Below are positions 2 to 31,618 of a stretch of DNA of 64,000 nt, piece by piece. A program made the translations under genes and the position numbers. Every line of letters begins with the position of its first letter. Within the stretch, counting starts at the first letter, position 1. Below the pieces are notes generated by a model. The model worked only from the letters and a program-made list of their open reading frames with translations. It had not been told where the DNA came from and made no database searches. Location of the stretch: assembly GCA_965112635.1 (NCBI GenBank), contig OZ218778.1, forward strand, positions 2,208,001-2,272,000, written 5' to 3'. The DNA comes from an uncultured bacterium (lineage in GTDB: Bacteria; Oederibacteriota; Oederibacteriia; Oederibacteriales; Oederibacteriaceae).

Positions 2-3000
2 GGACTCAACCGCTATATTGTTCCCCTGATCAAAGGCGCGTCAGTGACCTTCAAGGTTGACGAGGGCTTTGTCAGCGACAATAAGATCAAGGTGGGACGG
101 TATGACTGGTCTGATATCGCCAAGATGGAGCACTCGGTGCGGGCCTACCAGGAAGCAGGCAAGGGGGTGCTGGAGCTGCACCTGACCGTGCCTGTGGCAG
201 CACGGAGCGAACAGGTCATAGACCCTACTTACGACCTGGCGACCCTCACCAACTATCTTACCCGTTATTCCGGCGCAGTAGATAGTTATGTCGCCGGTGT
301 CCTATCGGTGGCTGTAGGCGACCTGAACAACGACGGCATCAATGACCTGGTTGTTGCTGTGTCGGGCAGCAGAAGAGATAGTTCGGTATATGTGATTTAC
401 GGCCAGCTTCCCGGTGCTACTCCTGGCTTGGATAAAGACCTGGATATAACAACCAACTGGAATGTGCGTTGGCACTGTTCAGATGATAACAATTACCTGG
501 GGACTTCCCTGGCTATCGGTGATCTGGACGGTGATGGTCATAACGACCTGGTCATTGGGACTACAGGGTCCAGCTATTTTTCCGGCAGAGTGGGCGCTGT
601 ATTCGTCATGTTCTACTCCTCAGGCTGGTTCGTTAATGGGCCGGGCGTGACGTATGACATAACCAATCCCGCTAATTATAATATTCGTTTTGACGCTCCA
701 GATGCAAATTATAACTACGCAACTTTTGGATGGAAGGAGGCCATAGGAGACCTGAACAATGACGGGCATAACGACCTGGTCATGGCGGATGCTGCTGGAT
801 CGCCGTATGGTGGTGCCAGAGATATGTGCGGGTCTGTTTATGTGGTTTATGGGAACCTGACTTTGACAGGTACAGGCAATGTCGTAGATATGTCCAATTC
901 GGCTAATTGGAATGTGCGCTTTGACGGGGACACCGGTAATAACACTTATCCTAATCTGGGTTCTGATATAGCCATTGGCGACATAAACCACAGCGGTTAT
1001 CCGGATTTGATCATGGGGGAAGACAATGGCGGCATTACTTATATTGTTTATAACACACAGGACACACCCGCTAATTTTCCCGCTGGTTTTGGGAATGTCG
1101 TTGACCTTATGGGGGCATCGTCAAACTACAATGTAAAGATCACTTCTGGTGCAGGCACTACCTATAATGTAGGGACTTCGGTTGCTGTCGGGGACCTGAA
1201 CAATGACGGTGGGGCTGATCTGGCGGTTGGAGGGCCAAGATCCTGGGATGGGGTCAACTGGGGCGGGGCCGTCCGGGTGGCCTATTTTGATCCCTCAAGA
1301 TTTCCGTCCGGCAGTTCCACAGGCTATACCTGGGATATCACTACTGTGGGTAATTATGATGTGGAATATATTTCTGCAGGGGCCAGCGATAGTGGCCAGC
1401 ATTTTGGCAGTGCCTTGGCCATCGGCAATTGCGGCTGCAACGGGTTGAACGCCCTGGTCATCGGCGGCGACCAGATGAGCACGCTGGGCAGAACAAATAA
1501 TGGCTGTGTTTATGTAATAGGCCAGCCTCTAGGCTCTGGCAGTGTAGACCTTTCTGCGGGCGGTTATGCTGCACGCTATGATGGAGATGTCTCGAACGGG
1601 GGGAACGGATTAGGCGCTCCTAACTCCATAGCCATTGGCAGTTTATGCGGCAACAGCTCTCCTGAACTGGTCATGGGCAGCTTAGGTGTTAGTACGGACA
1701 GCAGGTCCGGCAACGGCGCGGTGTACGTGATGAATGAGTGTTTGCCTACGAGTACACCGACACCGACCCCTTCTGAGACAGCTACAGAAACGGCGACGGA
1801 GACGGTCACGGAGACTGCCACACAAACGGCTACTGAAACCGAAACCCAGACGACCACTGAGACAACCACTGTGACGGCTACGGATACGGCGACTGAGAGT
1901 TATACTCCAACTGCGACGCCAACAGAAACGGAGACCCCTACGGGAACAAACACCCTTACAGAAACAGGCACTTCTACCAAGACAGACACTGCTACTGAAA
2001 CAGCCACATCTTCTGGCACTGAAACGGCCACCGCCACTGAAACCGAGACGGCTACCTCGACTCAAACGGACACTGGAACGAATACCACCACTGAGACCGT
2101 CACGGAAACAGGGACACTCACTGAAACCGGAACCGGAACCACTACAGAGAGTGTTACGGAAACTGCGACCGCCACAAATACCAATACGGAGACTGCTTCA
2201 GGTACGGTGACTCAGACAGCGACTGAATCGGCAACTCAAACGGCTACGGAAACAGGAACGGCAACAGCCACCGGCACCGATACGCCTGTAAATAGTTCGA
2301 CAGCAACAGCGACCCAGACAGCAACCAACACGGGCACGGAAACTGCGACTGCCACAAATACAAACACGGCGACGGCCACGGGTACAGTGACTCAGACAGC
2401 GACTGAATCGGCAACTCAAACGGCTACGGAAACAGGAACGGCAACAGCCACCGGCACCGACACACCTGTAAATAGCGTGACAGCAACAGTGACACAGACA
2501 GCAACCAACACAGTTACGGAAACTGCGACCGCCACAAATACAAATACGGAGACTGCTTCAGGTACAGTGACTCAGACAGCGACTGAATCGGCAACTCAAT
2601 CTGCAACGGAAACAGTAACGACAATGGCTGCTGGAACCGACACGCCTATAAATAGCGCAACAGCAACGGCCACCCAGACGGCGACGAGCACAACTACGGA
2701 AACCTTGACTCTGACCGCTACCGCCACGAATACCAATACCAGCACGGCAACTTCTACGGTTACTAACACCGTAACTCAAACCAGTACTGCCACCAGCACA
2801 AATACCAATACTGCAACGGCTACCATAACTGTTACCGTCACCAATACAGGTACAGTAACCTCTTCTTCAACTCCCACCCAGTCTACTTCTCCAACCGCAA
2901 CCCAGACAGCCACCCAAACGGCGACCCAAACCGCCACCAGCTCGCCCTCAGTGACAGGGACAAATACGGATACGGTTACTGCGTCTGCGACCGTGACCCA

Positions 3001-3826
3001 AATTTTGACCTCCACGCTGACCGCGACAGCGACCTCAACGAATACCATCACGGGAACAAGTACTGCCACAGCGACCGCGACGCAAACCGGGTCTGCTACC
3101 CAGACCAATACGTCTACTTCCACGGGTACGGTTACAAACACTACGTCTGCGACCGTTACTGCCACCCAGACTGCAACGGCGACTCAATCCGGGACGGTTA
3201 CCTCGACCGGTACCGCGACCAATACGGCAACTGTCTCAGCCACTGTGACCCAAACCGCCACGATCACCGTCACAGCCACCATTACTCAAACCGGCACAAT
3301 TACCTTGACGAGCTCTGTCACTAACACCGGGACGGAGACCGCCACCTTGACGCAAACAGGAACGCAAACGCAGACCGGCACGATCACGAATACTTCCACT
3401 CAGTCGCCCACACCAACGCAAAGTGGGACAGGGACAGAAACCATGACCATCACTCTGACCTTGACGTCCAGTGAGACACCCACATCGACGATGACGGGTA
3501 CCATTACCAATACACCTACAAACACAACGACTGTGACCAATTCTCCCACTCCGGGAGATTTGAGCACTACATACATCAGTTCAAATATCATCACAAACTA
3601 TGTCTCTGGAGCGAGCAAGATCTCCATCAAGAGCATTCCCAAGGGCACCACCATTGAGATTTATAATGTGAACCGCGAGAAAGTTTACAGCTGTTATGTA
3701 ACATTGGACCACGCCGATTGGTATTTAAAAAATTCCAACAACGACGAGGTCAGTTCCGGAGTTTACTTTATGATTCTTGTCCATAATAACGAAAAGCGGA
3801 TCAAGCGGATTGTTTTGGTGAAATAG
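2..3826 (+). CDS. Large surface/secreted protein: FG-GAP (integrin-alpha-like) beta-propeller, about 600-aa Thr-rich stalk, C-terminal T9SS-CTD/FlgD-Ig-like domain; 5' end lies outside the window
   Basis: Repeated GDLNNDGxxDL(V/I) FG-GAP motifs, alternating T-x-T-x region, C-terminal IEIYN...W...SGVYF...KRIVLVK motif. The frame is open from base 2, upstream of the GTG at 44. Confidence 0.85.
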   Translation, partial: GLNRYIVPLIKGASVTFKVDEGFVSDNKIKVGRYDWSDIAKMEHSVRAYQEAGKGVLELHLTVPVAARSEQVIDPTYDLATLTNYLTRYSGAVDSYVAGVLSVAVGDLNNDGINDLVVAVSGSRRDSSVYVIYGQLPGATPGLDKDLDITTNWNVRWHCSDDNNYLGTSLAIGDLDGDGHNDLVIGTTGSSYFSGRVGAVFVMFYSSGWFVNGPGVTYDITNPANYNIRFDAPDANYNYATFGWKEAIGDLNNDGHNDLVMADAAGSPYGGARDMCGSVYVVYGNLTLTGTGNVVDMSNSANWNVRFDGDTGNNTYPNLGSDIAIGDINHSGYPDLIMGEDNGGITYIVYNTQDTPANFPAGFGNVVDLMGASSNYNVKITSGAGTTYNVGTSVAVGDLNNDGGADLAVGGPRSWDGVNWGGAVRVAYFDPSRFPSGSSTGYTWDITTVGNYDVEYISAGASDSGQHFGSALAIGNCGCNGLNALVIGGDQMSTLGRTNNGCVYVIGQPLGSGSVDLSAGGYAARYDGDVSNGGNGLGAPNSIAIGSLCGNSSPELVMGSLGVSTDSRSGNGAVYVMNECLPTSTPTPTPSETATETATETVTETATQTATETETQTTTETTTVTATDTATESYTPTATPTETETPTGTNTLTETGTSTKTDTATETATSSGTETATATETETATSTQTDTGTNTTTETVTETGTLTETGTGTTTESVTETATATNTNTETASGTVTQTATESATQTATETGTATATGTDTPVNSSTATATQTATNTGTETATATNTNTATATGTVTQTATESATQTATETGTATATGTDTPVNSVTATVTQTATNTVTETATATNTNTETASGTVTQTATESATQSATETVTTMAAGTDTPINSATATATQTATSTTTETLTLTATATNTNTSTATSTVTNTVTQTSTATSTNTNTATATITVTVTNTGTVTSSSTPTQSTSPTATQTATQTATQTATSSPSVTGTNTDTVTASATVTQILTSTLTATATSTNTITGTSTATATATQTGSATQTNTSTSTGTVTNTTSATVTATQTATATQSGTVTSTGTATNTATVSATVTQTATITVTATITQTGTITLTSSVTNTGTETATLTQTGTQTQTGTITNTSTQSPTPTQSGTGTETMTITLTLTSSETPTSTMTGTITNTPTNTTTVTNSPTPGDLSTTYISSNIITNYVSGASKISIKSIPKGTTIEIYNVNREKVYSCYVTLDHADWYLKNSNNDEVSSGVYFMILVHNNEKRIKRIVLVK
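2153..2690 (+). repeat. Intragenic tandem repeat, about 3 x 180 bp (60 aa), within the Thr-rich stalk
   Basis: The lines starting at 2161, 2341 and 2521 are near-identical, and 2221-2280 is identical to 2401-2460. Confidence 0.9.
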
Positions 3827-3839
3827 GAAGGATGAAACC

Positions 3840-4775
3840 GTGAATAAATTTAGATTGATAGTCCTTTTAGCGGGGTTGTTCTTAGTCCCAGGGAACCTAC
3901 TGGCCCTTGGGATAGGCGAGACCGGCGCCCCTTTCTTAAAAATAGGAGTTGGCGCTAGAGCTGCCAGCATGGGTGAAGCCTACACGGCCGCGGCGGATGA
4001 CGTCACATCGCTTTACTGGAACCCAGCCGGCCTTTCTTTTTTGCAGGACCGTCAAGCAATATTTATGCATGACATATGGGGCGAGCAGGTTTATCTGGAT
4101 TATCTAGCCTATGCACAGACAATAGGGAATGATGACGCTCTGGGAGCCTCGGCAACCTATTTTTGGATGTCTCCCGTTGACGTCAACGATGATTCAGGAA
4201 AACTTACGGGACAGACCTGGAGCGTTTATGATATCTGCGGGACCCTGGGGTATTCACGGAAATTAGGGGACAAGTTCAGCCTGGGGATTACCGCAAAATA
4301 TATCCAGGACCAGCTGGGGACCTTTCAAAGCATAGGGTTCGCCGGGGATTTTGGACTTCTCTGCAAGATTATCTCAGACCCAGATGTCAGAATAGGCGCG
4401 GTCATCCAAAATATTGGCACCCCGATTCAATTTATCAGCGCCTCAAGTGTTCTACCTTTGGTCGGCAAAGTGGGCGCCTACAGTCTGATTTACCGTGACG
4501 CGGATAATGCCGTCGGGATCGCGGCGGATATGGTGGTACCTAACGATAATTATATTTACGGTGATTACGGTTTGGAATATTCGTTACAAAACGTTCTTAT
4601 TTTCCGAGGAGGATACATGAGCAGGCCCGATGCTCCTTCGCTGAGCCTGGGGGTAGGCATCAAACAGGCCACGGAGGACTTCATGGCGGAGTTGGATTAT
4701 TCCTTCACCAGTCAAAATGCCACCTCGCAAGGGATGGGTGCCATTCACAGGATCTCCCTGCTATACGGTTTTTAA
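3840..4775 (+). CDS. PorV/PorQ-family (UPF0164-like) outer-membrane beta-barrel
   Basis: Signal peptide, FLKIGVGARAASMGEAYTA...YWNPAGL motif, C-terminal HRISLLYGF ending in Phe. Confidence 0.85.
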   Translation: MNKFRLIVLLAGLFLVPGNLLALGIGETGAPFLKIGVGARAASMGEAYTAAADDVTSLYWNPAGLSFLQDRQAIFMHDIWGEQVYLDYLAYAQTIGNDDALGASATYFWMSPVDVNDDSGKLTGQTWSVYDICGTLGYSRKLGDKFSLGITAKYIQDQLGTFQSIGFAGDFGLLCKIISDPDVRIGAVIQNIGTPIQFISASSVLPLVGKVGAYSLIYRDADNAVGIAADMVVPNDNYIYGDYGLEYSLQNVLIFRGGYMSRPDAPSLSLGVGIKQATEDFMAELDYSFTSQNATSQGMGAIHRISLLYGF

Positions 4776-12608: not shown

Positions 12609-15600
12609 TTAGACGTTAAATGTTTGCAGGGGCATGCGTATGGTCTGGCCAGACAGGCTGTGCATGCTCAGGCGATAGTGGTAGGTTCCTGCCACGAGTT
12701 TGACAGGGCATTTCCATTCCAAACCGCTGTACTCCTTGGGATACACATTCCCCTCGATCTTATCCAGCTTATTACCTTTGAGGTCCGATATCTCAATGGT
12801 CACCAGTCCGTTCTCCAAGGCCAGGTAGTAGAACTTCACGCTGTTTTCCACGGGATGATAATAAGCAAAAATATCCCGGTTAATGTTCAGGTTGACCACG
12901 GGAGCTTCCACAAATACCTTGGATAATTTCAGTATGGGCTGATTGGGGATAGAGACCAGCAGGTCATACTCGCCTTTAAGTATTTTCCCGGAGAAATACT
13001 GGCCATTGGTGTTGGTGTTTATGGTCCGAATAAGCTGGCCTTTTTGCATCAGGTCTATCCTGGCCTGGTTCACGGGCTTGGTTCCGTACTCATCCAGCAC
13101 CCTGCCGCACACAATGGAGTATTTTTGCTTTATTTTGATGGCAACGTGGCTGGCGATCTTTCCTATGCCCTGCTGGGGGTTGTAGGAAACGATATGGAAA
13201 TACCAGTTCCCCTCGCTGATATTGTTAAAAGTTGCGTTAAAGAGCTGGGTTTTAGTGCTTTGTTCCGTGGGGATTGTTTCCGGGTTCTGGTCCAGCAGGT
13301 AATAATAGGCGTTGACCCCGTCCTTGAAGTTGGGCGCGATCCAGCTGAAGATGGGATTGTCGTTCTCGTAGCTTTCCAGGCTGTTGGGGTGGGTAGGCGA
13401 CTGGGCTTCGGGAGGCGGGGGCGTTTTGGAGATAAAAACAGGGTAATGTGCCGCGATCTCCCCGGTCAGGCCGCTGGAGGTGACCACCACCACATGGAAA
13501 TACCACTTGCCCTCCTTGACGTTGGACAGGAACAGGCTGTTTTCCAGGGTCCAGGTGCCGTCGTTGCTGGAGGGAACGGTCTTCTCGTTCTGGTCAAATT
13601 TGTAGTAGTAACCCTCGATGCCACCCACCGAGGCCGAACATCCCCATTTGAACAGGATATCGGTTTCAGCGTACCACGTATTCCGCAGCGGGTGCGTGGG
13701 AGAGAACACGATGGGCACTTTGGGCTTGTTGCTGTCGATATTGACTTTAAAGTGCGAGGTGGAGCTTAGGTTTCCGGTGATGTCTTTGGAAGCTAGGTGC
13801 AAGTACCAAGTGCCCGATTTCATGTTGGAAAGGGTCAGGTTGGTGTCCTTGGTCCACAGGGCCATGGGTGGCCGTGGGTCGGTCGAAGGAAAAGCGTCCA
13901 GGGCGTAGTAAAACCCGGTAATGCCGCCTTTGTTCTCCGGCGTGGTCCAGTTAAAAACGACCGTGTCCTCGTAGTACCATTTTTGCTGGTCCGGATGCGT
14001 GGAGGAAGTGACGGCCGGCGCCGTGGAATACTTGTCGCAAAGCGCTTTGGCCTGTTTGTTGCCCATAGTCTGCTCGTTGCCCGCCTTGTCCACGGCGTGG
14101 ATGGTGTAATAGTAGGTCTGCCCGTGCTCCAGATTGTTCGGGGAGTCCATGAACTTTTCGTCGGTCAACTTTTGGTCCTGCGAGATAAGGTCACCGGTTA
14201 GCCCCATTTCGGTGGAACGGTAGACCCTGTAGAAATGGGTGCCGCTCACCGGGTCGCTGACCTTTTCCCAGGAGAGTTCGATGTAGCCTTCAGCCAGGGA
14301 AACGGATTTGGGGTTGACCACGGGAGGCGGCGGGGTCACGTCGATGGTGGTCGTTACCAGGGCCTCGGCCTCCGGGAAATTCTCCTGGTTGCCCGCCTTG
14401 TCCCGGCCCCTGGCCCTGAAACTGTACTGGAACGCATCCATGCCGAAAAAAGTGGCCGAGGTCAGGGTGGTGTGGGTCAGCCAGTCCTGCCAGGTGCCAT
14501 TGACGCCTTCCTTGACCTGGACGTCGTAGTAGTCCACCAGCGAGAAATTGTCGTTGCTGCTCCATTGGATGGTAAAGGCCAGGGAACGCTGGAAGTTGCC
14601 CAGGGGATGCACGGTCGTGTGGGGCGCCAAAAGGTCCAGGCAGACCTTGTGGTGGCTGGCCTGGCTCAGGTTGTCCGTGTTGTCGACCGCGCAAAGGTGG
14701 AAATAATATAGGCCTTCCTTGTCCGCCCTGACCGTGGCGCTGGTGTCCGGGGTAAAGATGCCGTTCTCCTGGGTCGGCACGGTCTGGGGATGGTTGTCCA
14801 GGGAATAATAGAAACCCTTGATGCCGGACAAGTCCTCCGGCATGGTCCATTTCATCCTGATCTCCGGGTCGGAATACCAGCGGCCCTGGTCGGGATGCGA
14901 ATCCGACAGGAGGCTGGCGGACTGGCACTGGGTGTCGATATTGAACCGGAAGTGGACGACTTCGCTCTTGTTGCCCGCCTGGTCTTTGCTCACCAGGTGG
15001 AAATACCATATTCCGTCCCGCAGGGCCGTGAGCTGGATCTCGGATTTGAGGGCCCACAGGCTGGTCTCTTCCACCGGCACGGTGTCAGGATTGGAGTCCC
15101 AGCAGTAGAGGTAGCCCACCACGCTGGACAGGCTCACTGCTTCGCTCCATTTCAGGAGCGGACGGGTCTCGCTGTACCACTGGCCGGGTTCGGGGTGCGT
15201 GGGGGAGAATATCTTTGGCGGCGTGACGCTGGTGGAGATCTGGATCTTGTAGTGGAACGGCAGCTTGCTGAGGTTACCCGCGAAATCGGCGCTGGTGATG
15301 TGGAAATACCAGGTCCCCTCGCTCAGGTTGTCGAATTTGATTTCGGTCCCTTCTAGAAAATCAGCCGTGGCCGGGTCAGGCACCGTGTCTTTTTCCTGGT
15401 CCAGGCAGGTGTAGTAGCCCTTGATCCCGGATAGGTCCGGAGGGCAAAGCCAGGTCAAGACCGCTTCGGTCTGGCGGGACCAGTCGTTTTCGCTGGGATG
15501 GGTCATGGAGGTCACGGTCGGTGCTAGGGCCACGGTGTCGATATTGATCTGATAATGGGCAGGTTCGCTCACGTTATCGGCCATATCCTTGGCCGCCAGG

Positions 15601-18143
15601 TGGAAATACCAGGACCCGTCGTTCATGTCCTGAAAACTGGCGCTGGTACCCGTGGTCCAGACGCTGGTGGTGGCGTGGGGGATGGTCTGAGGGTTCTGGT
15701 CGAACGCAAAATAGTACCCCGCGATGCCGGACAGGTCCTCAGGTGCGTCCCATTCAAAGACCGACTTGGTCTCCGTGTACCAGGCCAGGTTGTCAGGGTG
15801 CGTGGGCGAATATATCTTGGGCGTATCCACGTGCGTGTCGATACGGACAGGCAGGGTCACGGCAGGGCTCACGCATCCGGCCTGGCTCTGCACCATCACA
15901 TGGAAATACCAAACGCTGTCCTCTTTCTCGCCGAAGTTGATGGTCTGGTTGTTGGTCCAGATCCCCTTGCTCGGTTTAAAATCAAAATCCTGCTGCTGGT
16001 TGAGCTGGTAGAAACAACCGCGGATGCCCGACTTGGACCTGGCCGACTGCCAGTGCACCACAGGCTGGTTATGGCTGTACCATTTCTTGGGGTCCTGATG
16101 CGTCAGAGAGCTTACCGTGGGCTGACCTACCGTCAGGTCAATGCACACGCCGTAGTGGGCGGGTTCGCTCAGGTTGTTGGCCTTGTCCTTGGCTACGACG
16201 TGCATGTGCCAGATGCCGTCCTCGATGTTCTTGAACTGGAACCCGGTCTGGGTGGTCCAGATGGAGTTCCTCTCGTCCGGGACCGTATCGCGATTCTTGT
16301 CCAGACAGAGGTAGTAGCCCTCGATCCCGGAAAGGTCGTGAGGGGTGGCCCAGGTGAACTGCGGCTGGTTGTGGCTGTACCACTCCTGCTGGTCCGGGTG
16401 TGAAGGCGAGTTGATGACCGGGATAGGCGCGACGGTGTCGACCTTGATCTGGTAGTGGCAGCAGGTGTCAGCCATGTTGCCCGAGGTGTCTTTGGGTCTT
16501 AGGTGGAAATACCAGACGCCGTCGGCGATGTCGCGGAAGATATGGTTGTTCTTTTTGGTAAAATGCGCTTCCTCCATGTCCGGGATGGTGTCCGAGAAGG
16601 CGTCCAGGATGTAGTAGTGGCCGTCGATCTCAGACGAGTTTTCCCACTGGAACATAAAGTCACGGTGGTTGGACCAGCCGTCGGCCGAGAGCAGGTTGGG
16701 GGAACTGATTTTAGGCAGGACCGGGGTCTTGGTGGTGAAACTGCCTTCCTTGACCTCCTGGAACGAGCCGCCGGTCAAGGAACTGACCAGTCTATAATGG
16801 TAGGTCGTGTTGGACTTGAGGTCCCCTAGGGCCACCGCATGCTTGTAGGTATCGGTCTGGTCCGTGACCATGCGGTCCAGCAGGCCGCTGGTACCGTACT
16901 GTACGATGGTCGGGGCAGGTTCCGTGGTGGTCCAGTTCAGAGTAGCCGAACAGGAGGTCAGCTTGGTGATCAGGGGCTCGGACATCTCCACGGGCGAGGG
17001 GCTGTCCGAAAAACCGGATTTGTAGAGCTTGCCGGAGTTTTCCGTGGCCACGTAGAGCCGGCGGCCGTAGACCGCCATGCTGCGGACCCCATCGTCGGGC
17101 AGAGTAAAGGCCGTCTCCCATTCCTCGCCGTTGCTGGTCTTGTAGACTTTGCCCTTATCGCCGGTGCCGGCGTAGAGCGTGTTGTTGAAGGAAGTGAAGC
17201 AAAAAAAGTTGATGTCCTCCGAACTGCTGAAGCACGAGCTCCAGGTTTTGCCGTTGCCGGAGCAGAAGACCGCGCCGCCGGCAACCTTGTTGCTGGTGCC
17301 GGCATAGATCTTGTCCCTGAAAACGTGGAAGGCCTGGACAAAGGACTGGTCGGTCTGCCAGACCTTTTCCCAGGTCTTGGCGTCGTAGGAGCGGTAGATG
17401 ATGCCGTTGGGATAGGTGCCGCAGAACAAGGCCCGCTCGAAGATCGCCAGGGAGCAGCAGCTGGCCTCGCTGGTCTCGAACACCACGGACCAGCTCTTGC
17501 CGTTAAATTGCAGGATCCTGCCGGGCGTGGACGAGGCCGCGTAGAGCTTGTCCCGGAAATGGCACAGGCTGTGGATGCGGTCCTGCTTGGTCTCGGCCAG
17601 GCAGTTCCAGGAAAGGCCGTCCTTGGTGGAATAAACCCTTCCGTAAGAATTGGTACCGGCAAAAAGCAGGGGAACCCCGTCCAGGGTGCCGGATTCCAGG
17701 CAATACACCTGAGGGGTCAAGTCTTCGGCGTTTTCAGGTTCCTTGGGCTTGTTTTTGCCGCTATTTTTCTGTTTCAGGGGGTTAAAGAACTGGGAAGTGG
17801 CTTGGGTCAGCAGGATGGTCTTCCAGGAACCAGGGTCACCGGTTTGGGAGAACATGACGCCATCCCTGTTGCTGCAACAGAAGATCTTGCCGTTAAATTC
17901 ACGCAGAGAATACAAGCAAGGATGGCTTGACTCTTGATAAACCACATCAAACGCCGGGGACGCGCTATTTTGCAGGAAAAGCTCGATGGCCCGGGAGATA
18001 TTTTGGAAGGCTTCTTTTTTGGTCTTGCCCTGGCTGACACAGCCGGGGAGCAGGGGGCACTCGGCGGTAAAGGTCTCTTTGTCAGTTTTTTTGATGGAAA
18101 TAGGAAAACTCTTTTTTACTTCCGCGGATGGCACGAAAAGCAT
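12609..18143 (-). CDS. 1844-aa multidomain protein: HicB-like (UPF0150) N-terminal domain, beta-propeller, Fn3/Ig-like repeats, carboxypeptidase-regulatory-like domain, FlgD-Ig/CTD-like tail
   Basis: FTAECPLLPGCVSQGKTKKEAFQNISRAIELFL (HicB-like); Asp-box-like S-x-D/N-G-x-T/S-W repeats; ten ~100-aa SPTHP..WY..W..SGI.GYY..D..WYFH repeats plus three Fn3-like domains; GGAG RBS upstream. Confidence 0.8.
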   Translation of the reverse strand: MLFVPSAEVKKSFPISIKKTDKETFTAECPLLPGCVSQGKTKKEAFQNISRAIELFLQNSASPAFDVVYQESSHPCLYSLREFNGKIFCCSNRDGVMFSQTGDPGSWKTILLTQATSQFFNPLKQKNSGKNKPKEPENAEDLTPQVYCLESGTLDGVPLLFAGTNSYGRVYSTKDGLSWNCLAETKQDRIHSLCHFRDKLYAASSTPGRILQFNGKSWSVVFETSEASCCSLAIFERALFCGTYPNGIIYRSYDAKTWEKVWQTDQSFVQAFHVFRDKIYAGTSNKVAGGAVFCSGNGKTWSSCFSSSEDINFFCFTSFNNTLYAGTGDKGKVYKTSNGEEWETAFTLPDDGVRSMAVYGRRLYVATENSGKLYKSGFSDSPSPVEMSEPLITKLTSCSATLNWTTTEPAPTIVQYGTSGLLDRMVTDQTDTYKHAVALGDLKSNTTYHYRLVSSLTGGSFQEVKEGSFTTKTPVLPKISSPNLLSADGWSNHRDFMFQWENSSEIDGHYYILDAFSDTIPDMEEAHFTKKNNHIFRDIADGVWYFHLRPKDTSGNMADTCCHYQIKVDTVAPIPVINSPSHPDQQEWYSHNQPQFTWATPHDLSGIEGYYLCLDKNRDTVPDERNSIWTTQTGFQFKNIEDGIWHMHVVAKDKANNLSEPAHYGVCIDLTVGQPTVSSLTHQDPKKWYSHNQPVVHWQSARSKSGIRGCFYQLNQQQDFDFKPSKGIWTNNQTINFGEKEDSVWYFHVMVQSQAGCVSPAVTLPVRIDTHVDTPKIYSPTHPDNLAWYTETKSVFEWDAPEDLSGIAGYYFAFDQNPQTIPHATTSVWTTGTSASFQDMNDGSWYFHLAAKDMADNVSEPAHYQINIDTVALAPTVTSMTHPSENDWSRQTEAVLTWLCPPDLSGIKGYYTCLDQEKDTVPDPATADFLEGTEIKFDNLSEGTWYFHITSADFAGNLSKLPFHYKIQISTSVTPPKIFSPTHPEPGQWYSETRPLLKWSEAVSLSSVVGYLYCWDSNPDTVPVEETSLWALKSEIQLTALRDGIWYFHLVSKDQAGNKSEVVHFRFNIDTQCQSASLLSDSHPDQGRWYSDPEIRMKWTMPEDLSGIKGFYYSLDNHPQTVPTQENGIFTPDTSATVRADKEGLYYFHLCAVDNTDNLSQASHHKVCLDLLAPHTTVHPLGNFQRSLAFTIQWSSNDNFSLVDYYDVQVKEGVNGTWQDWLTHTTLTSATFFGMDAFQYSFRARGRDKAGNQENFPEAEALVTTTIDVTPPPPVVNPKSVSLAEGYIELSWEKVSDPVSGTHFYRVYRSTEMGLTGDLISQDQKLTDEKFMDSPNNLEHGQTYYYTIHAVDKAGNEQTMGNKQAKALCDKYSTAPAVTSSTHPDQQKWYYEDTVVFNWTTPENKGGITGFYYALDAFPSTDPRPPMALWTKDTNLTLSNMKSGTWYLHLASKDITGNLSSTSHFKVNIDSNKPKVPIVFSPTHPLRNTWYAETDILFKWGCSASVGGIEGYYYKFDQNEKTVPSSNDGTWTLENSLFLSNVKEGKWYFHVVVVTSSGLTGEIAAHYPVFISKTPPPPEAQSPTHPNSLESYENDNPIFSWIAPNFKDGVNAYYYLLDQNPETIPTEQSTKTQLFNATFNNISEGNWYFHIVSYNPQQGIGKIASHVAIKIKQKYSIVCGRVLDEYGTKPVNQARIDLMQKGQLIRTINTNTNGQYFSGKILKGEYDLLVSIPNQPILKLSKVFVEAPVVNLNINRDIFAYYHPVENSVKFYYLALENGLVTIEISDLKGNKLDKIEGNVYPKEYSGLEWKCPVKLVAGTYHYRLSMHSLSGQTIRMPLQTFNV

Positions 18144-18344
18144 ATTGCTCCTATAAATAATTGCTTGGTTTTGAGGAACACATTTTAAAATTGTCTAGTG
18201 GTAAAGTCAATGAATGATGAGTAATATATTAATATAACCTTTAAAGGTTAAGTCATTTTTTTTCTTGATAAAAAAATATGCCATAAAAAAATTATTGACA
18301 ATCGGCCGCCAAATCACCTAGCAAACGGCTGAGAGGGAGTTGCT

Positions 18345-18968
18345 TTGAAAATATTGGTTTTAGACAGTGGGGAGCCCTTTTTCGAGAATACTTACCTGGT
18401 TTATGACCAGGATTCATTGGAGGGAGTGGTTATTGATCCAGGCTGCAGTCCTGCCAAAATACTTAAGGAGATCAAGGATAACAAGCTCAAGATCAAGTAT
18501 ATTTTGCTGACACATGGACATGCTGACCATATCGCTGGCCTGACCGGCCTGGCCCAGGAGACCAAGGCGCCGGTCCTGGTCCATGAGTTCGATGCCCCGT
18601 ATTTGGAAGACCCGGCCAAGAACCTTTCCGGGTTCATGGGAGCGCCGGTTATAGCCCCCAAGCCCCAGCAACTGCTCAGGGACGGCTCAGAGGTGAGTGT
18701 CCAGGGCATCACTTTCAGGGTCCTGCACACGCCGGGCCATACTCCGGGCAGCGTGTGCTACCTGACCCAGGCCGGTCTGTTCTCCGGCGATACTATCTTC
18801 CAAGAATCCATTGGACGCACAGACTTTCCCGGCAGTTCCTCTGATAATATTATAAGGTCCATCAAGGAAAAGATTTGGGCCTTGCCGGGATCAACGGCGA
18901 TCTATTCAGGCCACGGCGAACCGACCACTGTGAGCCACGAAAAAAAACACAACCCGTTCATCGATTAG
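18345..18968 (+). CDS. MBL-fold metallo-hydrolase (glyoxalase II/YcbL-like)
   Basis: THGHADH, HTPGHTPG, FSGD, GHG, NPF. Confidence 0.93.
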   Translation: MKILVLDSGEPFFENTYLVYDQDSLEGVVIDPGCSPAKILKEIKDNKLKIKYILLTHGHADHIAGLTGLAQETKAPVLVHEFDAPYLEDPAKNLSGFMGAPVIAPKPQQLLRDGSEVSVQGITFRVLHTPGHTPGSVCYLTQAGLFSGDTIFQESIGRTDFPGSSSDNIIRSIKEKIWALPGSTAIYSGHGEPTTVSHEKKHNPFID

Positions 18969-23117: not shown

Positions 23118-23407
23118 TCCAAAAAGTCAGAAAAACCCACCTTTGGTTGCCACAAAACAGCTACATTTTAATATGCAGTTTTAAAGGAGTTAGTTGCTAA
23201 TTGCGATAGCGTGAAACTAGAAATACGCCTATTGCTAATATTTCCAATACTAAAATAATCTTCAGAAATTGCTTCAAATTTGAAAAATTTAACAAATTAA
23301 TCCACTTACGCCCATAGGTCTTACACCCGCCTCAATTTGGACACAAACGCTGTTTATCCCCTGGGAGCAGGCACGGTCAGGTATCTGGCTGTTCCCCAAA
23401 TCAGCCC

Positions 23408-24595
23408 AAAACTCTGATAGGATAAAGGTTTTACACAGATCAGGCTCTCAGCAGCCCGGAAACTCCCGAGGCTATATATATAAAGAAAGAGACTACGGCG
23501 GGAGAACAGGGTGTAGGCTGTAAAGCGATTGTGTTATAAGGGTTTTGTGTAGAATGTCCCATAGAACGGCGACAAAACTCTTATATTATAAAGGCTTTTT
23601 AAAGTTTTCCCGGGTTCTGGGCCTCAACAGGGCTTCCCAGGTTTTCTCCTTATTCTGGAACGGGAAAAATGGGCGATTTCGCATTTAAATAGGCCTAATT
23701 TGAAAAAATCCTAGAGACACATGCAATTACCCTAGCTTCAAAAAACCCAGAACGGTTAGTTTCCGCCACCTCCAACCCTGGTCAATCTCTAGCCACCGGC
23801 CCGGATCCAGCCCGGTCCAGCAGGGGAATTTAGTATGGAATAACGGAACTTAGCTGTCGTAAACAGACAGGCATCCCTGGTCAGCCCTGGAAAACCCTTA
23901 ATTCATGAGGCTTTTACAGGCCTATCGCTTTAATAAGCTGGCCCTGTCTGGACAGGAAGCAGTTGTTTCGTGGACATTTGGGGGCATAGGATAGCTTTCC
24001 AGCAGGGGGAAAGCCCTCTAAACACGAGAGTTGCTTTAAAATATATGTATTTAGGGGTTGTTTCTGCCGAATCTCCTGCAAATGCAACGGTTTTCGTATT
24101 AAATAACAATTTATTAGGTAGGCAAATCTGGGTTGTTAGAACGGGTATATCTCTCTAAGCCCTTGATTTAATGGTCCTTTTTGACGGCTGGGCCGGTTCT
24201 CCCAATACCCTGAATTCGCATCAGAATGAACTAATTTGAGAAAAAACTATGGAATTAATGAAGTTATATTGCTCTTAAAAGTGGTCTTTTTCTGGACAAA
24301 AGGCGGCAAACCAATCCTTAAAGGGACCTTAGCTGGCTACAGAAACTTAGGAAATGTCCAGGAAATAAGGTATTTCCCAGGTCAGGAACCAGGGTCCCTG
24401 ATCCACAGGGATTAAAGCCTGAAAACAGGCCAGGAAATAAGAGATTTGCAGGATGCCGCCTAAATAACAAAGCGGGATTAGGTGAAAAAAGGGAGTATGG
24501 GATGAAGAGCGGTAAAGTGCAGAAAAGGCCATAAAAACAAGGGTTTTCGCATGAAAATGGCCCTAATTTCGAAGTTTATCGAGAATAAGGGTATA
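23408..24595. repeat. Dispersed array of degenerate 25-bp palindromes (AAAACCCTTR-N5-YAAGGGTTTT) in a 2.36-kb non-coding region
   Basis: Copies at 23408, 23522, 23574, 23891, 24156, 24391, 24523; weaker ones at 24010, 24037, 24571. Confidence 0.65.
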
Positions 24596-25478
24596 TGGGT
24601 TAGGTCCGAAAAACACCATTTTCGCTTGTATTGATAAGGGGAATATACGGGCTGGGGAATAGGTAGACAAGACTCCCCAACGAGCAACAAATCTATTAAA
24701 TATAATAGATATTATATGTAACAAAATAATTATAGTTGAAGTCATTTCTTAGAAATATTAAGAATAGATTTTGTTGCAAATCCAAGCCGAAATTAAACCC
24801 TGATTTACAGACTATAATTGGCTTTGGCGGGGAATTGGGATAACTTCAGCAAATCCAATAGTTTTTGATAACCTAATTCCCAACAAACCATATTAGATAA
24901 TACCGGTTAACGCTTGCGATAACAAACAAAATAATAGTTACTTTTACTAAAACAGAAAGAGACTAGTTTTCCAAGATAGAAAGAGTAAAGCTTAGGTAAA
25001 TTAGCCTAGCTGCGAACCCTGATCCGGTTAGGTTGGCAGGGACGGTCTAGAGCCTTGGGTCAAGACCTAGGGCTGGGAGGCTGACCAGGGTCAAGGCCAA
25101 CGGCTGACCGGACCCGGCCGGCTAGGTGGCCTTGGTTGGTTCCGGGGGCTGAGGCTAGCTTGACCCCGGGGCTAACTGGAACCCAGAACCGGGAGCTTGG
25201 GGTCCAAGGATTGGAAGCCAGGGGAGCCTAAACTATCCTGCAGCTGCCTGTTAGGAACCCTTTAAAACTACCTATTATTACAACGTTTATTATCCACAAG
25301 ATTTCGCAGGTAGTTTGTTAAATAAGGGAATAAGGGTATCCTGGCCTTAGGTTTTAAATTAAAGCAAAACATTTATACCCTGACTTTAGAAGTGCTGATT
25401 CAATGCTTGTCATTACAGCGCTATTATGAACGAATAATTTAGACCCTTGTTTTTGTGTTTTCGTGTATAATCTGAACC

Positions 25479-27008: not shown

Positions 27009-27878
27009 TTGAAATATTGGATGTTCGTCCTGCTTTTTGCTGTTTTCTTTTGCCCGCTCTTCGTTTGCGCGGAGTCTGTATGGTCAAAGAACGGCAAAAG
27101 CTTGTTCTATGCAGAGAAATATAAGGAAGCCTTTTATGACCTGCAACAGGCCGTAAGCCAGGGAGATGCGCAAGCCGTTGAATTAGTGGGAGTCATGTAT
27201 TTGGACGGGTTAGGAATTAAAAAGGACCCTAAGAAGGCCCTCTGGTATTACAAAAAAGGGGCCAGGCTGGGCGAGCCCTACTGTATGAATAATTTGGCAA
27301 CCATGTATTTCAACGGGATTGCTGTAAAGCGAAATGAAAAAAAAGCGTTTGAGTTGTATAAAAAGTCCGCGGACAAAGGTTGTTTTTATGCCCAAACCAA
27401 TATAGCCGATTCTTATTTAGCAGGGCATTTTGTGAAAAAAGATTATAAGAAGGCTTTGGAGTTGTTTCAAAAGGCAGCGGACCTGGGAGATAGCTACGCG
27501 CAAAGGAAAATAGGGGATATGTACATGAGGGGATGGGGCGTGCCCATAGATTACGACAAAGCCTACTCGCAGTTTTACGAAGCGTCCCAAAAGAACGACG
27601 ACATTGCCGAGCTTAACCTCGGTTTTCTTTATCATGATGGCCTTGGGGTAACGAAAAGCGCGCGGCAAGCCCTGGAATGGTTTGGCAGGTCAGTGGAACA
27701 CGGAGATGGTTTAGCCGCGAAATTTATAGGTGATATGTATGAACGCGGGGATGGTGTGAATCCGAATATGCGCGAAGCCTTGCGCTGGTATAAAAAAGCC
27801 AAAAAATTAGGTTTCGATGATGTAGGCAAAGATATCGCGCGAGTTGGTTATGCCATCGTCAAGCCTATTGGTGAGTAG
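27009..27878 (+). CDS. Secreted Sel1-like repeat protein
   Basis: Signal peptide; about six A...LG.MY..G.GV..D..KA..WY.KAA repeats. Confidence 0.92.
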   Translation: MKYWMFVLLFAVFFCPLFVCAESVWSKNGKSLFYAEKYKEAFYDLQQAVSQGDAQAVELVGVMYLDGLGIKKDPKKALWYYKKGARLGEPYCMNNLATMYFNGIAVKRNEKKAFELYKKSADKGCFYAQTNIADSYLAGHFVKKDYKKALELFQKAADLGDSYAQRKIGDMYMRGWGVPIDYDKAYSQFYEASQKNDDIAELNLGFLYHDGLGVTKSARQALEWFGRSVEHGDGLAAKFIGDMYERGDGVNPNMREALRWYKKAKKLGFDDVGKDIARVGYAIVKPIGE

Positions 27879-27991
27879 GAAAAAGGCGATCTGTCGATAA
27901 ACTCGAGGCGCGGAGGGGGAGAAGTGGAATAAATGAATAAAAACCATTTTATAGGCGGAATTTTGGTTAAGAAGGGATTAAAATTACTTAC

Positions 27992-29683: not shown

Positions 29684-31068
29684 GGAAGTTTAAGATTAGA
29701 AATTTTAGGGAATACAAAAAAAAGCAAATAGCAGTTTCTGTCATCCTGATATTTTCAGCGATGTTTTTGTGTCTTGAGCACGGGATTTGCCAGAACAGCG
29801 GGAATAGTGTTCTGACCGTCACGCCTCAGGCTATGACCAATACAAGCGTTGTGGCGGGGCTTATCCAAAACCTGACCGGAAAAGACGACCAGGCTGCCAG
29901 CCGAGCGGCAGACCAACTAGGTGATATGTCTATCGAGGCCAGGGACGCCGTGCCTAGCCTAATTGAGACGCTCAAAGATCAGCAGCGCTCCGTGGTCGTG
30001 GGTTCAAGCGCAGCCAGGGCGCTGGCCAGGATTTGGCCCTACGAGAAAGGGACTATCAATGCTTTGGTGGATGCTCTCAAGGACAGCCGTCCACCTGTGC
30101 GCATTGCCGTGGTCAATGCCGCGGGTTCAATCCAACCGGTCCGCAAAGAGGTTTTTGACGCATTTTTGGATATGCTGAAAAGCAGTAGCGAGTCCGACGG
30201 CATCAAGATGAATGTCGAGGATAAGCTAGGGGAAATGTGGCCCTATGATAAAAAAGCGGTCTTGCGGGCCTTGTATGGCGCATTAAAAGACCGCAGTCCT
30301 TATGTCCAAAAAGAGGCTATCCATGTGTTTGGTCAGATGGGGCCTGAAGCCAAGATTTTGCTGCCCATTATTCAGGAGGCCAGGAAAGACCCGTCCCTGG
30401 TTCCTGATATAGATGAAGCTGTGCAAAAAATAAATACTCCTGCTCACCTCGCAAAACCAGACCCAGGGGTCGTGGACTTGTACGGTGGGATCAATTTCAA
30501 GTACATGGTGTTCATGCATTTAAAAACAGAGGGGGACAGATTGACCGGGGATTACAATTACGGCAATCCCAATGATTATTTGCTAGTTCATGGAAACATG
30601 AACGAGTTTGATGAGTTCGATATGGACGGGAACTATGAAGGAACAATGCATTTCACCAAGGTGTACGGCCTTTACAAGGGGGAGTGGCAAAACGCAAATA
30701 AAACCAAAGTCTATCCTTTTTTCGCGGTTCCCCAAAAAAATATTTTCAGCACTTCCTATGATCTTTTTAGGGAACAATACACGGTACAGGTCGTGGGCAG
30801 CATCAAGAACATGGCTGACATGCAATCCCTGGAGATTACCCGCAATGGACAGTCGTTCACCGGGAACCACAAAAAGAACGGCCGCTTCCTGGCACTGGTT
30901 GGCCGCATCCAGTCGTCGGGTCTTGTTTCTCTAAGGGAAGTGGATGCCCAAAAAAAGGTAATAGGTTCATTCACGGGAAAAATTACGAATAGGGGGAGCT
31001 TTTACGGGGAGTATCAGGACTTTTCAAGCATGTCTTCCTGCCCGTTCTTTTTTGTAGTTTCGAATTGA
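29680..31068 (+). CDS. Exported HEAT/PBS-lyase repeat protein with C-terminal beta-rich domains
   Basis: N-terminal hydrophobic segment; AVPSLIETLKD, ALVDALKD..P.VR repeats; ATGA overlap with the upstream gene. Confidence 0.75.
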   Translation: MRKFKIRNFREYKKKQIAVSVILIFSAMFLCLEHGICQNSGNSVLTVTPQAMTNTSVVAGLIQNLTGKDDQAASRAADQLGDMSIEARDAVPSLIETLKDQQRSVVVGSSAARALARIWPYEKGTINALVDALKDSRPPVRIAVVNAAGSIQPVRKEVFDAFLDMLKSSSESDGIKMNVEDKLGEMWPYDKKAVLRALYGALKDRSPYVQKEAIHVFGQMGPEAKILLPIIQEARKDPSLVPDIDEAVQKINTPAHLAKPDPGVVDLYGGINFKYMVFMHLKTEGDRLTGDYNYGNPNDYLLVHGNMNEFDEFDMDGNYEGTMHFTKVYGLYKGEWQNANKTKVYPFFAVPQKNIFSTSYDLFREQYTVQVVGSIKNMADMQSLEITRNGQSFTGNHKKNGRFLALVGRIQSSGLVSLREVDAQKKVIGSFTGKITNRGSFYGEYQDFSSMSSCPFFFVVSN

Positions 31069-31457: not shown

Positions 31458-31618
31458 ATTTGATAAAAAGGGTCGGGTTGGACTTGCAAAAAGAAATAGA
31501 CCCTAGGCAAACATTGAAAATCTCCGCATCACAAAATATCACATTTTTAAGTATTCCTTCGATCTTTCTGAAGTGGAACTTTACTGTGATAGTCTTGTCT
31601 AATTTTTCAGGAGCACGG

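Follow-up and report, generated by a model that had tools for sequence, protein, structure and literature searches.

Gene and domain architecture

Why does a protein built like a bacterial surface fibre begin with a HicB fold where a Sec signal peptide would belong, and on which side of the inner membrane does it act? The question is raised by one open reading frame in the window, by which we mean the whole 64-kb stretch of DNA that was analysed. The frame occupies positions 12609..18143 (-), starts with ATG, encodes 1,844 aa plus a stop codon and was confirmed to be real. HicB domains are generally viewed as small antitoxin modules that work in the cytoplasm in partnership with HicA, and HicB antitoxins are small proteins, usually with a C-terminal RHH or HTH DNA-binding domain. 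An earlier note on this DNA had described a HicB-like domain running in frame into an adhesin-like array, and profile searches and AF2 modelling support the domain order that it listed. The features are given from the 5' end of the gene.

18182..18210 (-), sigma70-like promoter match TTGACT-17-TAAAAT (10 of 12 positions, consensus match only)
18148..18152 (-), Shine-Dalgarno sequence AGGAG, 4 nt 5' of the ATG
17934..18107 (-), HicB/UPF0150-fold domain (b1 b2 b3 a1 b4), residues 13-70 (profile matches and AF2 model)
17004..17915 (-), Asp-box/BNR-type beta-propeller, residues ~77-380 (DUF6242 match, AF2 model and Foldseek)
16731..16967 (-), Fn3-like domain (Pur_ac_phosph_N), residues 393-471 (28.2 bits, cut-off 30)
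14619..16718 (-), seven ~100-aa OmpL47/Big_13-type repeats, residues 476-1175 (profile matches and repeat starts)
14034..14618 (-), two Fn3-type domains, residues 1176-1370 (fn3 at 1277-1358 with 36.3 bits; Big_3_2 weak at 1201-1259)
13119..14018 (-), three further OmpL47/Big_13-type repeats, residues 1376-1675 (profile matches and repeat starts)
12906..13109 (-), prealbumin-like domain (CarboxypepD_reg/SdrD_B-like), residues 1679-1746 (two matches under the cut-off, at 22.8 and 22.9 bits)
12612..12893 (-), C-terminal beta-sandwich apparently akin to the T9SS-type CTD/FlgD-Ig, residues 1751-1844 (family-tail HMM)

The propeller was modelled by AF2 with a pLDDT of mostly 86-97 and a low-confidence insert at residues 118-141. 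Foldseek searches with the 420-residue model returned generic 7-8-blade propellers only, an ESM Atlas search gave only BNR-like leads (0.78-0.80), and PDB sequence relatives were found neither for the 420-residue profile nor for repeats 476-1175. The repeats matched the Big_13 profile at 69.6 bits and the OmpL47-type domain at 57.7 bits (cut-off 40). Clean S-x-[ST]-H-[PQ] motifs open nine of the repeats, from residue 579 to residue 1582 at a spacing of ~100 aa, and a tenth, degenerate start was placed near residue 479 by eye. In matching both domain types the ~100-aa repeat resembles that of the Leptospira OmpL47/Big_13 repeat proteins, and OmpL47 is reported to be surface-exposed. The giant protein scores too low for an OmpL47 equivalog (45.7 bits, cut-off 250) and differs from OmpL47 in that its ten repeat copies are set between other modules.

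The absence of a leader, also claimed in the earlier note, was borne out. No signal peptide was recognised (maximum KD12 of 1.13 within the first 50 residues), and no hydrophobic or transmembrane segment occurs anywhere in the 1,844 residues (maximum Kyte-Doolittle 19-mer of 1.03). There is no space for a leader upstream, because an in-frame stop sits 17 codons 5' of the ATG (open frame of 1861 aa). The ORFs of orthologs that were inspected in public MAG loci and in further families likewise lack an N-terminal leader. A lipobox reading of 'LPGC' in the N-domain was rejected, the Cys being missing in families f2 and f16-f23. As a separate observation, the cysteine content of the giant-protein family gives no information. 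Pfam and NCBIfam profile searches detected no DNA-binding family in the protein. The sigma70-like match lies in a 200-bp, AT-rich intergenic region (GC 0.39 across 18000-18499) and would place the start of transcription near 18175, with expression predicted to be monocistronic; the gene is flanked by a convergent ThiI-like gene and a divergent MBL hydrolase.

Identity of the N-terminal domain

Pfam HicB_lk_antitox matched residues 13-66 in the protein search (E 6.1e-6, 26.8 bits, cut-off 27) and reached 31.3 bits, above the cut-off, in a six-frame search of the genome. PHROG 497 ('HicB-like') matched the N-domain at an E of 1.4e-9. Alignment of the orthologs' N-domains to 21 small HicB-like proteins with hhalign gave a probability of 99.6% (E 6e-24), and the profile of these 21 proteins matched a solved HicB at 2.7e-9. 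Compared directly with the PDB, the N-domain profile matched HicB/TTHA0281 weakly (E 0.13-0.78); the top match in that search, an S-layer protein at E 0.045, was taken as chance. The N-domain is 32% identical over 47 aa to HicB of the same genome.

AF2 placed strands at residues 16-19, 25-28 and 36-39, a helix at 42-59 and a fourth strand at 65-70, which is the b-b-b-a-b fold of the HicB antitoxin N-domain (PF15919/PF21748), and the signature ...LPG..(x)G.T..EA...(x)AI.L.. is shared as well. Solved structures of such domains include HicB of B. pseudomallei (6G1C/6G26), E. coli (6HPB) and Y. pestis (4P78), and TTHA0281 (2DSY). HicB entries topped the Foldseek list for the isolated N-domain, the best match being the HicB N-domain 6g1c (TM 0.61, rmsd 1.1 A over 48 columns) with an E of only 0.047. 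Failure of the N-terminus to score as HicB, an outcome that the earlier note had allowed for, was tested and did not occur; comparison at the sequence level demonstrates that the N-domain is homologous to HicB. Residues 1-420 were modelled as one body (pTM 0.70, mean pLDDT 81, from an alignment of 12 rows only), in which the fourth strand of the HicB domain appears to abut the first propeller blade at residue 77 across a short junction.

Unlike the HicB antitoxins, this domain opens a 1,844-aa multidomain protein that has no DNA-binding domain and no hicA next to it. A search for further long proteins carrying a relative of this HicB N-domain gave 39 matches, all of them orthologs or fragments of the giant protein. 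Two candidates were rejected: P0027, as a relative of the N-domain, was low-complexity noise, and P0177 (343 aa), as a stand-alone form, ends in a poly-K frameshift.

Distribution and conservation in the phylum

Of 99 FCPU426-labelled MAGs that represent the phylum, 65 contain the giant gene as a single-copy ortholog with the same N-terminus, in agreement with the earlier note's view that the fusion is genuine. Families f3-f8 lack the gene altogether (0 of 28 genomes). The 65 holders gave 68 matches, and the three genomes with two matches contain split pieces; three orthologous genes are split by a frameshift or a contig end, and their N-terminal piece was located separately. Sixty-one matches start within profile positions 1-15 and retain the HicB part, and a HicB domain opens 13 ORFs in public MAG loci and all 11 ORFs in further families. 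Homologs with a signal peptide in place of HicB were looked for and none occurred.

The orthologs share length (open frames of ~1850-2490 aa for whole genes) and domain order. Between families, identity was 33% in the HicB part, 35-44% in the propeller, Fn3 domains and repeats, and 28-29% in the two C-terminal domains; the HicB part is conserved about as well as the remaining domains. A quick gene tree grouped the orthologs by taxonomic family (f2, 100; f13, 99; f22, 99; f16-f23, 100). The gene is single-copy, vertically inherited and situated amid housekeeping genes, and the related loci have nothing in common with the 64-kb window except the giant gene itself. Neighbours were clade-specific and none was universal: a zinc-ribbon/TM protein and a Wzy_C-TPR protein are encoded beside it in f16-f23, and FlgK-like, CTD-protein and PorV-like barrel genes in f9-f10; across the compared loci no transporter, PorV-like barrel or other gene was a constant neighbour. 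The HicB-fibre fusion is real and functional, because it is retained in most of this uncultured phylum.

Export pedigree and secretion machinery

The modules other than HicB all belong to types found in exported proteins, in this genome and elsewhere, and their relatives were shown to be Sec-exported. The nearest non-orthologous relatives of residues ~75-385 are secreted BNR/Asp-box (Sortilin-Vps10/DUF6242) proteins with a T9SS tail (P0192, P0198 and P0205), which are 27% identical to the giant protein over ~55-60% of its first 400 residues and differ from it in their classical signal peptide and their length of 526-723 aa. All three of these full-length relatives, and P0007, bear a signal, and some of the signal-bearing relatives of the propeller also carry Por_Secre_tail. 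Among ORFs of other phyla with the same repeats, 21 of the 22 examined (of 39 such loci) open with a hydrophobic leader.

An HMM of the family tail matched the C-termini of 25 other ORFs in the genome, most of them also Pfam Por_Secre_tail matches. Leader-like N-termini were present in 23 of the genome's 27 other Por_Secre_tail ORFs; of the remaining four, three extend into an upstream frame or have their leader there, and the fourth contains a TM segment internally. The orthologs' tails matched Por_Secre_tail in 9 of 19 cases at E <= 0.1, one above the cut-off and three more at 22.7-25.9 bits. Por_Secre_tail cargo was detected in 94 of the 99 genomes of the phylum, families that lack the giant gene included, so cargo and giant gene have no specific co-distribution.

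T9SS cargo include the gingipains of P. gingivalis (type-A CTD) and adhesins of F. johnsoniae such as SprB. The giant protein resembles type-A CTD cargo in its head-stalk-CTD layout, and its tail appears to be related to Por_Secre_tail/FlgD-Ig. T9SS cargo normally require a Sec signal peptide plus a CTD (PMC9143113), and the giant protein differs in having no such signal. Of ten PorV-like matches in the genome three were above the cut-off, and no PorV-like gene adjoins the giant gene here. SprA_N reached only 21 bits, GldM was not detected by profile search, and a Peptidase_C25 sortase was not detected in the genome, the control for the latter likewise having no match anywhere.

Giant adhesins that have no signal peptide and carry a pre-folded N-terminal retention module occur in T1SS, according to a preprint (bioRxiv 10.1101/2025.09.30.679566). 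T1SS RTX adhesins such as LapA and MpIBP are likewise leaderless giant fibres with a small N-domain able to fold before export and a long Ig-like array. They differ in that their ligand-binding domain is C-terminal, whereas the putative ligand-binding propeller of the giant protein is N-terminal. RTX GG.G.D motifs numbered zero in six of six family members, no NCBIfam T1SS target domain was found, Peptidase_C93 (LapG-type protease) had no match in the genome, and a Pfam scan of flanking genes showed no ABC, MFP or OMF genes at the loci that it covered. Membership of the LapA-type T1SS adhesins was rejected because of the missing RTX motifs, T1SS domain and LapG-type protease, and for the same reasons any likeness of the HicB domain to a T1SS retention module would be an analogy only.

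Where the giant protein acts

The reading that we favour, and to which we give about an even chance, is that this is a surface-fibre gene in which an exapted HicB fold, attached to a propeller head, has taken the place of the signal peptide, the product being exported by a non-Sec route. The giant protein would be a phylum-specific fibrous protein organised like the CTD-type surface proteins in which the organism is rich, with the propeller as head, the Ig/Fn3 array as stalk and a sorting-type domain at the C-terminus. The Sec signal peptide would have been exchanged for the HicB/UPF0150-fold domain in the ancestor of most of the phylum, and the HicB fold, as an exapted small folded module, may serve as a structural cap or a protein-binding piece for the head and not as an antitoxin of HicA. 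The protein would still function as a fibre on the cell surface or in the extracellular space, and its Asp-box propeller probably binds a glycan. From such a function of a leaderless protein it would follow, therefore, that passage through the inner membrane does not depend on an N-terminal signal. The pre-folded HicB domain may serve here as an N-terminal stopper, much as the retention module does in T1SS adhesins. The earlier note's alternative, HicB as a tag for oligomerisation or export, would overlap with this reading. Several observations speak against export by a non-Sec route: no route is known by which a T9SS-tailed protein lacking a leader could pass the inner membrane, no constant neighbour hints at one, the tail in this genome has no Pfam CTD match and that of the family f2 orthologs is different, and the HicB family is otherwise cytoplasmic.

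Alternatively, and with a clearly smaller though still appreciable probability, the signal peptide was lost and the fibre kept inside as a giant cytoplasmic scaffold or ruler, in which HicB and the propeller bind a cytoplasmic protein or RNA and the Ig/Fn3 array is a spacer. Such a location fits a leader that is absent from every ortholog over phylum-level divergence, the missing TM segment, the cytoplasmic family of the N-domain, the lack of dedicated export genes nearby, and a genome in which the classical T9SS motor and the sortase were undetected (with the C25 control also blank). It does not sit well with all the other module types being those of exported proteins, or with a sorting-type tail that is still recognisable among the orthologs, and we know of no bacterial cytoplasmic protein of such architecture.

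Returning to export without a Sec signal, the leaderless state may itself be functional: the fibre would leave C-terminus first, or by another Sec-independent path, with the HicB fold as an N-terminal stopper or anchor that folds in the cytoplasm. We regard this more specific proposal as tentative and rather unlikely.

Relation to hicA and integrity of the junction

The earlier note had proposed a cytoplasmic sensor or decoy, whose HicB-like domain would keep a HicA-type RNase bound in trans for as long as the repeats detect no phage or other signal, as part of toxin-antitoxin or defence functions. This idea found no support overall, and we consider it improbable. In its favour, the N-domain is a true homolog of HicB, HicB N-domains alone can neutralise HicA according to PMC13621843, and more than half of the holders of the giant gene do have a hicA. 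No hicA is present at the giant-gene locus, as the earlier note had observed; the genome carries two hicA genes, both preceded by a 76-aa HicB-like gene of their own so that none is orphan, and the nearer lies at a distance of ~216 kb. These two true HicB-like partners also lack a DNA-binding domain. With hicA scored as a PF07927 match at E <= 0.001, it was found in 35 of the 65 holders of the giant gene vs. 14 of the 34 non-holders. The giant gene, unlike HicB antitoxins, is also kept in genomes without hicA: the toxin gene was undetectable in 30 of the 65 holders, 12 of which are at least 95% complete. None of the PADLOC-DB defence models matched the giant protein (0 families at E <= 0.01), its vertical, single-copy, housekeeping-type distribution is unlike that of mobile defence genes, and across 15 deep orthologs the only N-domain positions retained in 13 or more are F, PG, G and L, which define the fold. 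The giant gene was shown to be independent of hicA, and its product does not count as a conventional HicA antitoxin.

An assembly chimera or a mis-called start, with a separate small HicB gene joined wrongly to the fibre, is refuted for practical purposes and keeps a negligible probability, as the identical in-frame junction recurs in independent assemblies of at least 61 genomes and in 24 inspected ORFs, no stop codon separates the HicB and propeller domains, and the fourth HicB strand abuts the propeller in the AF2 model. Public contigs are identical over 17300-17906 and 18214-18400 and none crosses the HicB-coding stretch (three DNA runs from two studies, the search having turned up no RNA run); over 17300-18400 they fail to bridge 17907-18213, which is uninformative, and the junction is established from independent assemblies of orthologs, not from reads.

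Implications

The earlier note had not recognised this architecture from any described system, and literature searches found no published description of a HicB-Ig/Fn3 or HicB-propeller fusion; those papers on FCPU426 that were listed seem, from titles and opening lines of abstracts, to be surveys of diversity. The orthologs are named in databases only as 'hypothetical protein', 'predicted RNase H-like HicB family nuclease' or 'HicB family antitoxin, partial', and the automatic names 'HicB family antitoxin' and 'RNase H-like nuclease' are misleading for these giant proteins. Each part is familiar; the combination breaks two rules, that HicB is tied to HicA and that T9SS-tailed Ig/Fn3 proteins need a Sec signal. 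In one gene, which most of a candidate phylum has preserved throughout its history, HicB stands where the Sec signal belongs.

If the protein is exported, it would represent a secretion route or an anchoring trick so far undescribed, and the phylum would use a Sec-independent path for at least one CTD-type cargo. A stopper or anchor role would give a toxin-antitoxin domain a new job and would suggest that bacteria equipped with PorV-like barrels and CTD cargo, yet lacking a recognisable T9SS core, use an export route that has gone undescribed. If it is not exported, it would be a bacterial cytoplasmic fibre of a type that, to our knowledge, has no precedent. Exported or not, the giant protein plainly illustrates the exaptation of a toxin-antitoxin fold for a different task.

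Architecture of the protein and its gene

The HicB-headed giant is encoded by a single gene in the window, which lies within one 2.876-Mb contig of a genome with a completeness rating of 96.9%. Pfam and NCBIfam searches reproduced the order of domains proposed in the earlier note.

Features of the gene (window positions) and of its product (residues)
12609..18143, minus strand: coding sequence, one uninterrupted ORF of 1844 codons in the window sequence
18210-18182, minus strand: TTGACT-17-TAAAAT, a sigma70-like match in a 200-bp AT-rich spacer
Residues 13-66: HicB_lk_antitox, E 6.1e-6, 26.8 bits against a Pfam cut-off of 27
N-terminus: UPF0150, 19 bits
After the HicB-like domain: DUF6242/BNR-type propeller (Pfam/NCBIfam)
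Residues 393-471: Pur_ac_phosph_N (Fn3-like)
Repeats: Big_13, 69.6 bits, and an OmpL47-type domain, 57.7 bits against a cut-off of 40
Residues 1277-1358: fn3
Residues 1679-1746: CarboxypepD_reg/SdrD_B domain, sub-threshold

The repeats are arranged as seven plus three with two Fn3-type domains between them. Nine have a clean S-x-[ST]-H-[PQ] start by regular expression (residues 579, 679, 779, 879, 980, 1080, 1380, 1481, and 1582), and a degenerate first copy was seen by eye in the translation near residue 479. The best 19-residue hydrophobicity window scored 1.03 (0.89-1.46 in five homologs), and the first 50 residues reached at most 1.13 over 12 residues. These low maxima across the whole protein indicate that it has neither a signal peptide nor a transmembrane helix, as the earlier note had also concluded. 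AGGAG lies 4 nt ahead of the ATG and the frame is closed by a stop 17 codons 5' of it (open frame, 1861 aa), so the gene has no room for a hidden leader. A lipobox at 'LPGC' was rejected because the Cys is not kept among deep orthologs.

The gene stands alone. A ThiI/NFACT-R-type gene converges on it from downstream, a gene for an MBL-fold hydrolase and mutL lie upstream and diverge from it, and the wider surroundings are housekeeping genes (gap-pgk-tpi-secG, miaA). Elsewhere in the window, positions 23118-25478 (2.3 kb) contain no ORF of at least 100 aa; GC content is low and uneven (0.33-0.53), no Rfam family at gathering score and no tRNA were found there, and its repeats are only short and chance-like. 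Positions 27009-31068 (plus strand) encode, in a row, a Sel1-repeat protein, a fusion of Sel1 repeats with a caspase (Peptidase_C14) and a HEAT-repeat protein, the last two genes overlapping by 4 nt.

Fold of the N-terminal domain

The N-terminus of the giant is truly HicB-like, on several lines of support that are partly interdependent. In a six-frame search of the genome the domain scored 31.3 bits, above the Pfam cut-off, and N-terminal domains of three deep clades matched PHROG 497 ('HicB-like') with E-values of 1.4e-9, 7.6e-6, and 3.7e-5. A profile of 12 orthologous domains retrieved 3953 proteins at E <= 0.001 from 1.84 billion representatives; nearly all of the best 150 were 58-165 aa long, and PF15919 was present in all 19 short relatives scanned. 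Aligned by hhalign with 21 small HicB-like proteins, which except for the genome's own HicB (locus L001) were the profile's own matches, it gave a probability of 99.6% (E 6e-24, 50 columns). The small-protein profile in turn matched the solved HicB structures 6G1C (2.7e-9), 6G1N/6G26 (5.7e-9), and 6HPB (1.2e-4), and the giant's domain shared 32% identity over 47 aa with the genome's bona fide HicB.

An AlphaFold2 model of residues 1-420 (12-row alignment, mean pLDDT 81, pTM 0.70) placed strands at 16-19, 25-28, and 36-39, a helix at 42-59, a fourth strand at 65-70, and the first propeller strand at residue 77. This order is that of HicB in the excerpted text of PMC13621843, namely three strands, a helix, and a further strand. 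Modeled in isolation (core pLDDT 71-83), the domain had as its best Foldseek match the HicB N-domain 6G1C (TM 0.61, rmsd 1.1 A, 48 columns), followed by TTHA0281, 6G1N, 6G26, 6U0I, 4P78, and 6HPB; all E-values exceeded 0.04, which is unsurprising for a domain of about 50 residues. Among 15 deep orthologs, the only residues shared by 13 or more are F (first strand), PG (turn between second and third strands), G, and L. The short junction between the fourth strand and the blade, together with the single-body model, suggests that the HicB fold is part of the propeller head.

Export-type features and secretion machinery

Judged from its relatives, all of the giant except its HicB part appears to be of an exported kind. 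The propeller's nearest non-orthologous relatives, P0007, P0192, P0198, and P0205, have a classical signal peptide, and the last three also end in a textbook Por_Secre_tail, the T9SS-type C-terminal domain (CTD). In contigs sampled at one genome per species, the repeat region alone was matched at 39 loci in other phyla; repeat-bearing ORFs were examined from 22 of these, and all but one (21/22) have a strongly hydrophobic start. An HMM built from the ~95 C-terminal residues of the giant and of five orthologs matched 25 other ORFs of the genome, always 4-35 residues from the C-terminal end, and most of them were also among the genome's 27 Pfam Por_Secre_tail matches (11 above cut-off). Tails of 19 orthologs matched Por_Secre_tail (9, one above cut-off at 29.1 bits), FlgD_ig (14), and CHU_C (7); the giant's own tail and three tails from family f2 (families of the phylum are numbered f1-f23) had no Pfam match. 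A leader-like N-terminus was found in 23 of the 27 Por_Secre_tail ORFs. Two of the remaining four continue upstream in another frame, one has a leader in an upstream frame, and the last, which has a transmembrane segment in its interior, resembles an anti-sigma protein. By this crude leader test, the giant would be the sole leaderless CTD-type protein in the genome.

CTD cargo occurs in 94 of 99 phylum genomes. The window's own genome has 10 PorV-like matches and only a 21-bit match to SprA_N; GldM was not found, and C25 sortase had no match, in a search whose control likewise matched nowhere. Several other large or CTD-bearing ORFs were observed. An ORF that is open at its 5' end (window 2-3826, plus strand) encodes at least 1274 aa, including FG-GAP repeats, and is followed after 14 nt by a PorV/FadL-like outer-membrane barrel gene (3840-4775, plus strand; PorV 50 bits), which looks like a large-protein-plus-barrel pair. 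An 805-aa ORF (31460-33877, plus strand) has a signal-peptide-like start, a C-terminal Por_Secre_tail-like domain (23.6 bits; tail HMM E 6e-5), and no further Pfam family. An 8355-aa open frame with Ig-like repeats and a weak CTD match (29359-54426 of the contig, minus strand) goes on upstream in another frame, so that gene is still longer or frameshifted.

We give about an even chance to the giant being a fibre outside the cytoplasm, capped by an exapted HicB domain. To our knowledge, well-known giant fibres that lack a leader are found only among the T1SS adhesins. In these, according to the excerpt of bioRxiv 10.1101/2025.09.30.679566, the retention module at the N-terminus is early to fold and plugs the channel; the giant lacks every defining part of these adhesins, and the likeness is one of analogy only. 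T9SS cargo needs both a Sec signal and a CTD, according to the excerpted text of PMC9143113, so an exported giant implies another route across the inner membrane. The alternative, a cytoplasmic scaffold, agrees with the missing leader and sits poorly with the exported-type relatives; it is possible but rather unlikely.

HicA genes and gene neighborhoods

The giant is very unlikely to be part of a working HicAB pair. The genome does carry hicA genes, at two loci:
C1:1455480-1456119: hicB-hicA pair (L001)
C1:2442267-2442735: hicB-hicA pair (L005)
Each lies directly 3' of its own HicB-like gene. These pairs are ordinary, with minimal 76-aa antitoxins that have no DNA-binding domain. Across the phylum hicA is patchy (49/99 genomes), being present in 35 of 65 genomes that hold the giant gene vs. 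14 of 34 that do not, and it is missing from 12 holders at least 95% complete (G043, G046, G050, G062, G065, G068, G069, G074, G078, G087, G090, and G092). PADLOC gave no family match for the giant. The proposal of the earlier note that the giant holds a HicA-like effector, as a sensor or decoy, is very improbable.

Nor does gene context offer a constant partner. Of the six f13-type loci scanned, five have MutS upstream, as does the f12 locus; the genes downstream are mobile or toxin-antitoxin genes. In f16-f23 the gene belongs to a series of genes with the same orientation. Upstream in 3/4 loci, those whose scanned flank extended there, are 2-oxoacid:ferredoxin oxidoreductase genes, and a GNAT acetyltransferase gene is directly upstream in 3/4; in two loci this gene and the start of the giant overlap by 4 nt. 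The gene directly downstream encodes a ~280-aa protein that has a zinc ribbon at its N-terminus, one transmembrane helix, and a ~210-aa outer part (4/4 loci by Pfam, 7/7 by sequence, L077-L083); this protein has no BLAST relative in the window's genome. The gene of a protein combining Wzy_C (O-antigen-ligase-like) with TPR (3/4 scanned) and then purN follow. In f9-f10, two co-directional ORFs of ~420-560 aa each precede the giant at all four loci (L074, L085, L086, and L087); the first has a CHU_C/FlgD_ig tail in 2/4, the second has PorV/FadL-type matches in 2/4, some with Fn3, and a FlgK-like gene lies ahead of the run in both loci extending that far. A squalene/phytoene synthase gene is downstream in both f2 loci.

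Conservation and history of the fusion

The fusion of HicB and fibre, as first described, is genuine, since orthologs across the phylum have a common N-terminal start, and there is practically no chance that the giant is an artefact. Five metagenomic homologs (1857-1874 aa) share this start and are 39-41% identical over the first 400 residues. The contigs sampled at one genome per species gave 22 loci (L006-L027) with a match to most of the giant, eight of these loci being labeled 'candidate division FCPU426'; all 13 ORFs that reach the N-terminus begin M-K-K-D-D-K-I-Q-K-K-x-F-P-Y... and continue into HicB-like sequence. A scan with a 420-residue N-terminal profile found the gene in 65 of 99 phylum genomes, in f1, f2, and f9-f23, with open frames of ~1850-2490 aa where the contig permits, and did not find it in f3-f8 (0/28 genomes). 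Sixty-one matches start at profile positions 1-15 and so include the HicB part; the two matches in each of G053, G056, and G073 are one gene in two pieces, with the HicB part on a separate piece. The domain also starts 11 of 11 further ORFs (f2, f9, f12, f13, f16, f18, f20, f22, and f23). No published description of a HicB-headed giant was found in the sources searched, as far as their text extended; database names are 'hypothetical protein', 'predicted RNase H-like HicB family nuclease', and, for one fragment, 'HicB family antitoxin, partial'.

Between-family identity (98 pairs of 15 sequences) was 33% for HicB, 44% for the propeller, 35-37% for Fn3 and repeats, and 28-29% for the last two domains; the HicB part is under constraint, as the other domains are. 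A quick maximum-likelihood tree clustered by family (f2 100, f13 99, f22 99, f12+f13 100, f16-f23 100), with the window's giant on a long branch. For a fibre with a HicB cap, the simplest history would begin with a surface protein composed of signal peptide, propeller, stalk, and CTD. In an ancestor of most of the phylum, the leader would have given way to a HicB-fold domain, and the product would have remained useful after the leader was lost.
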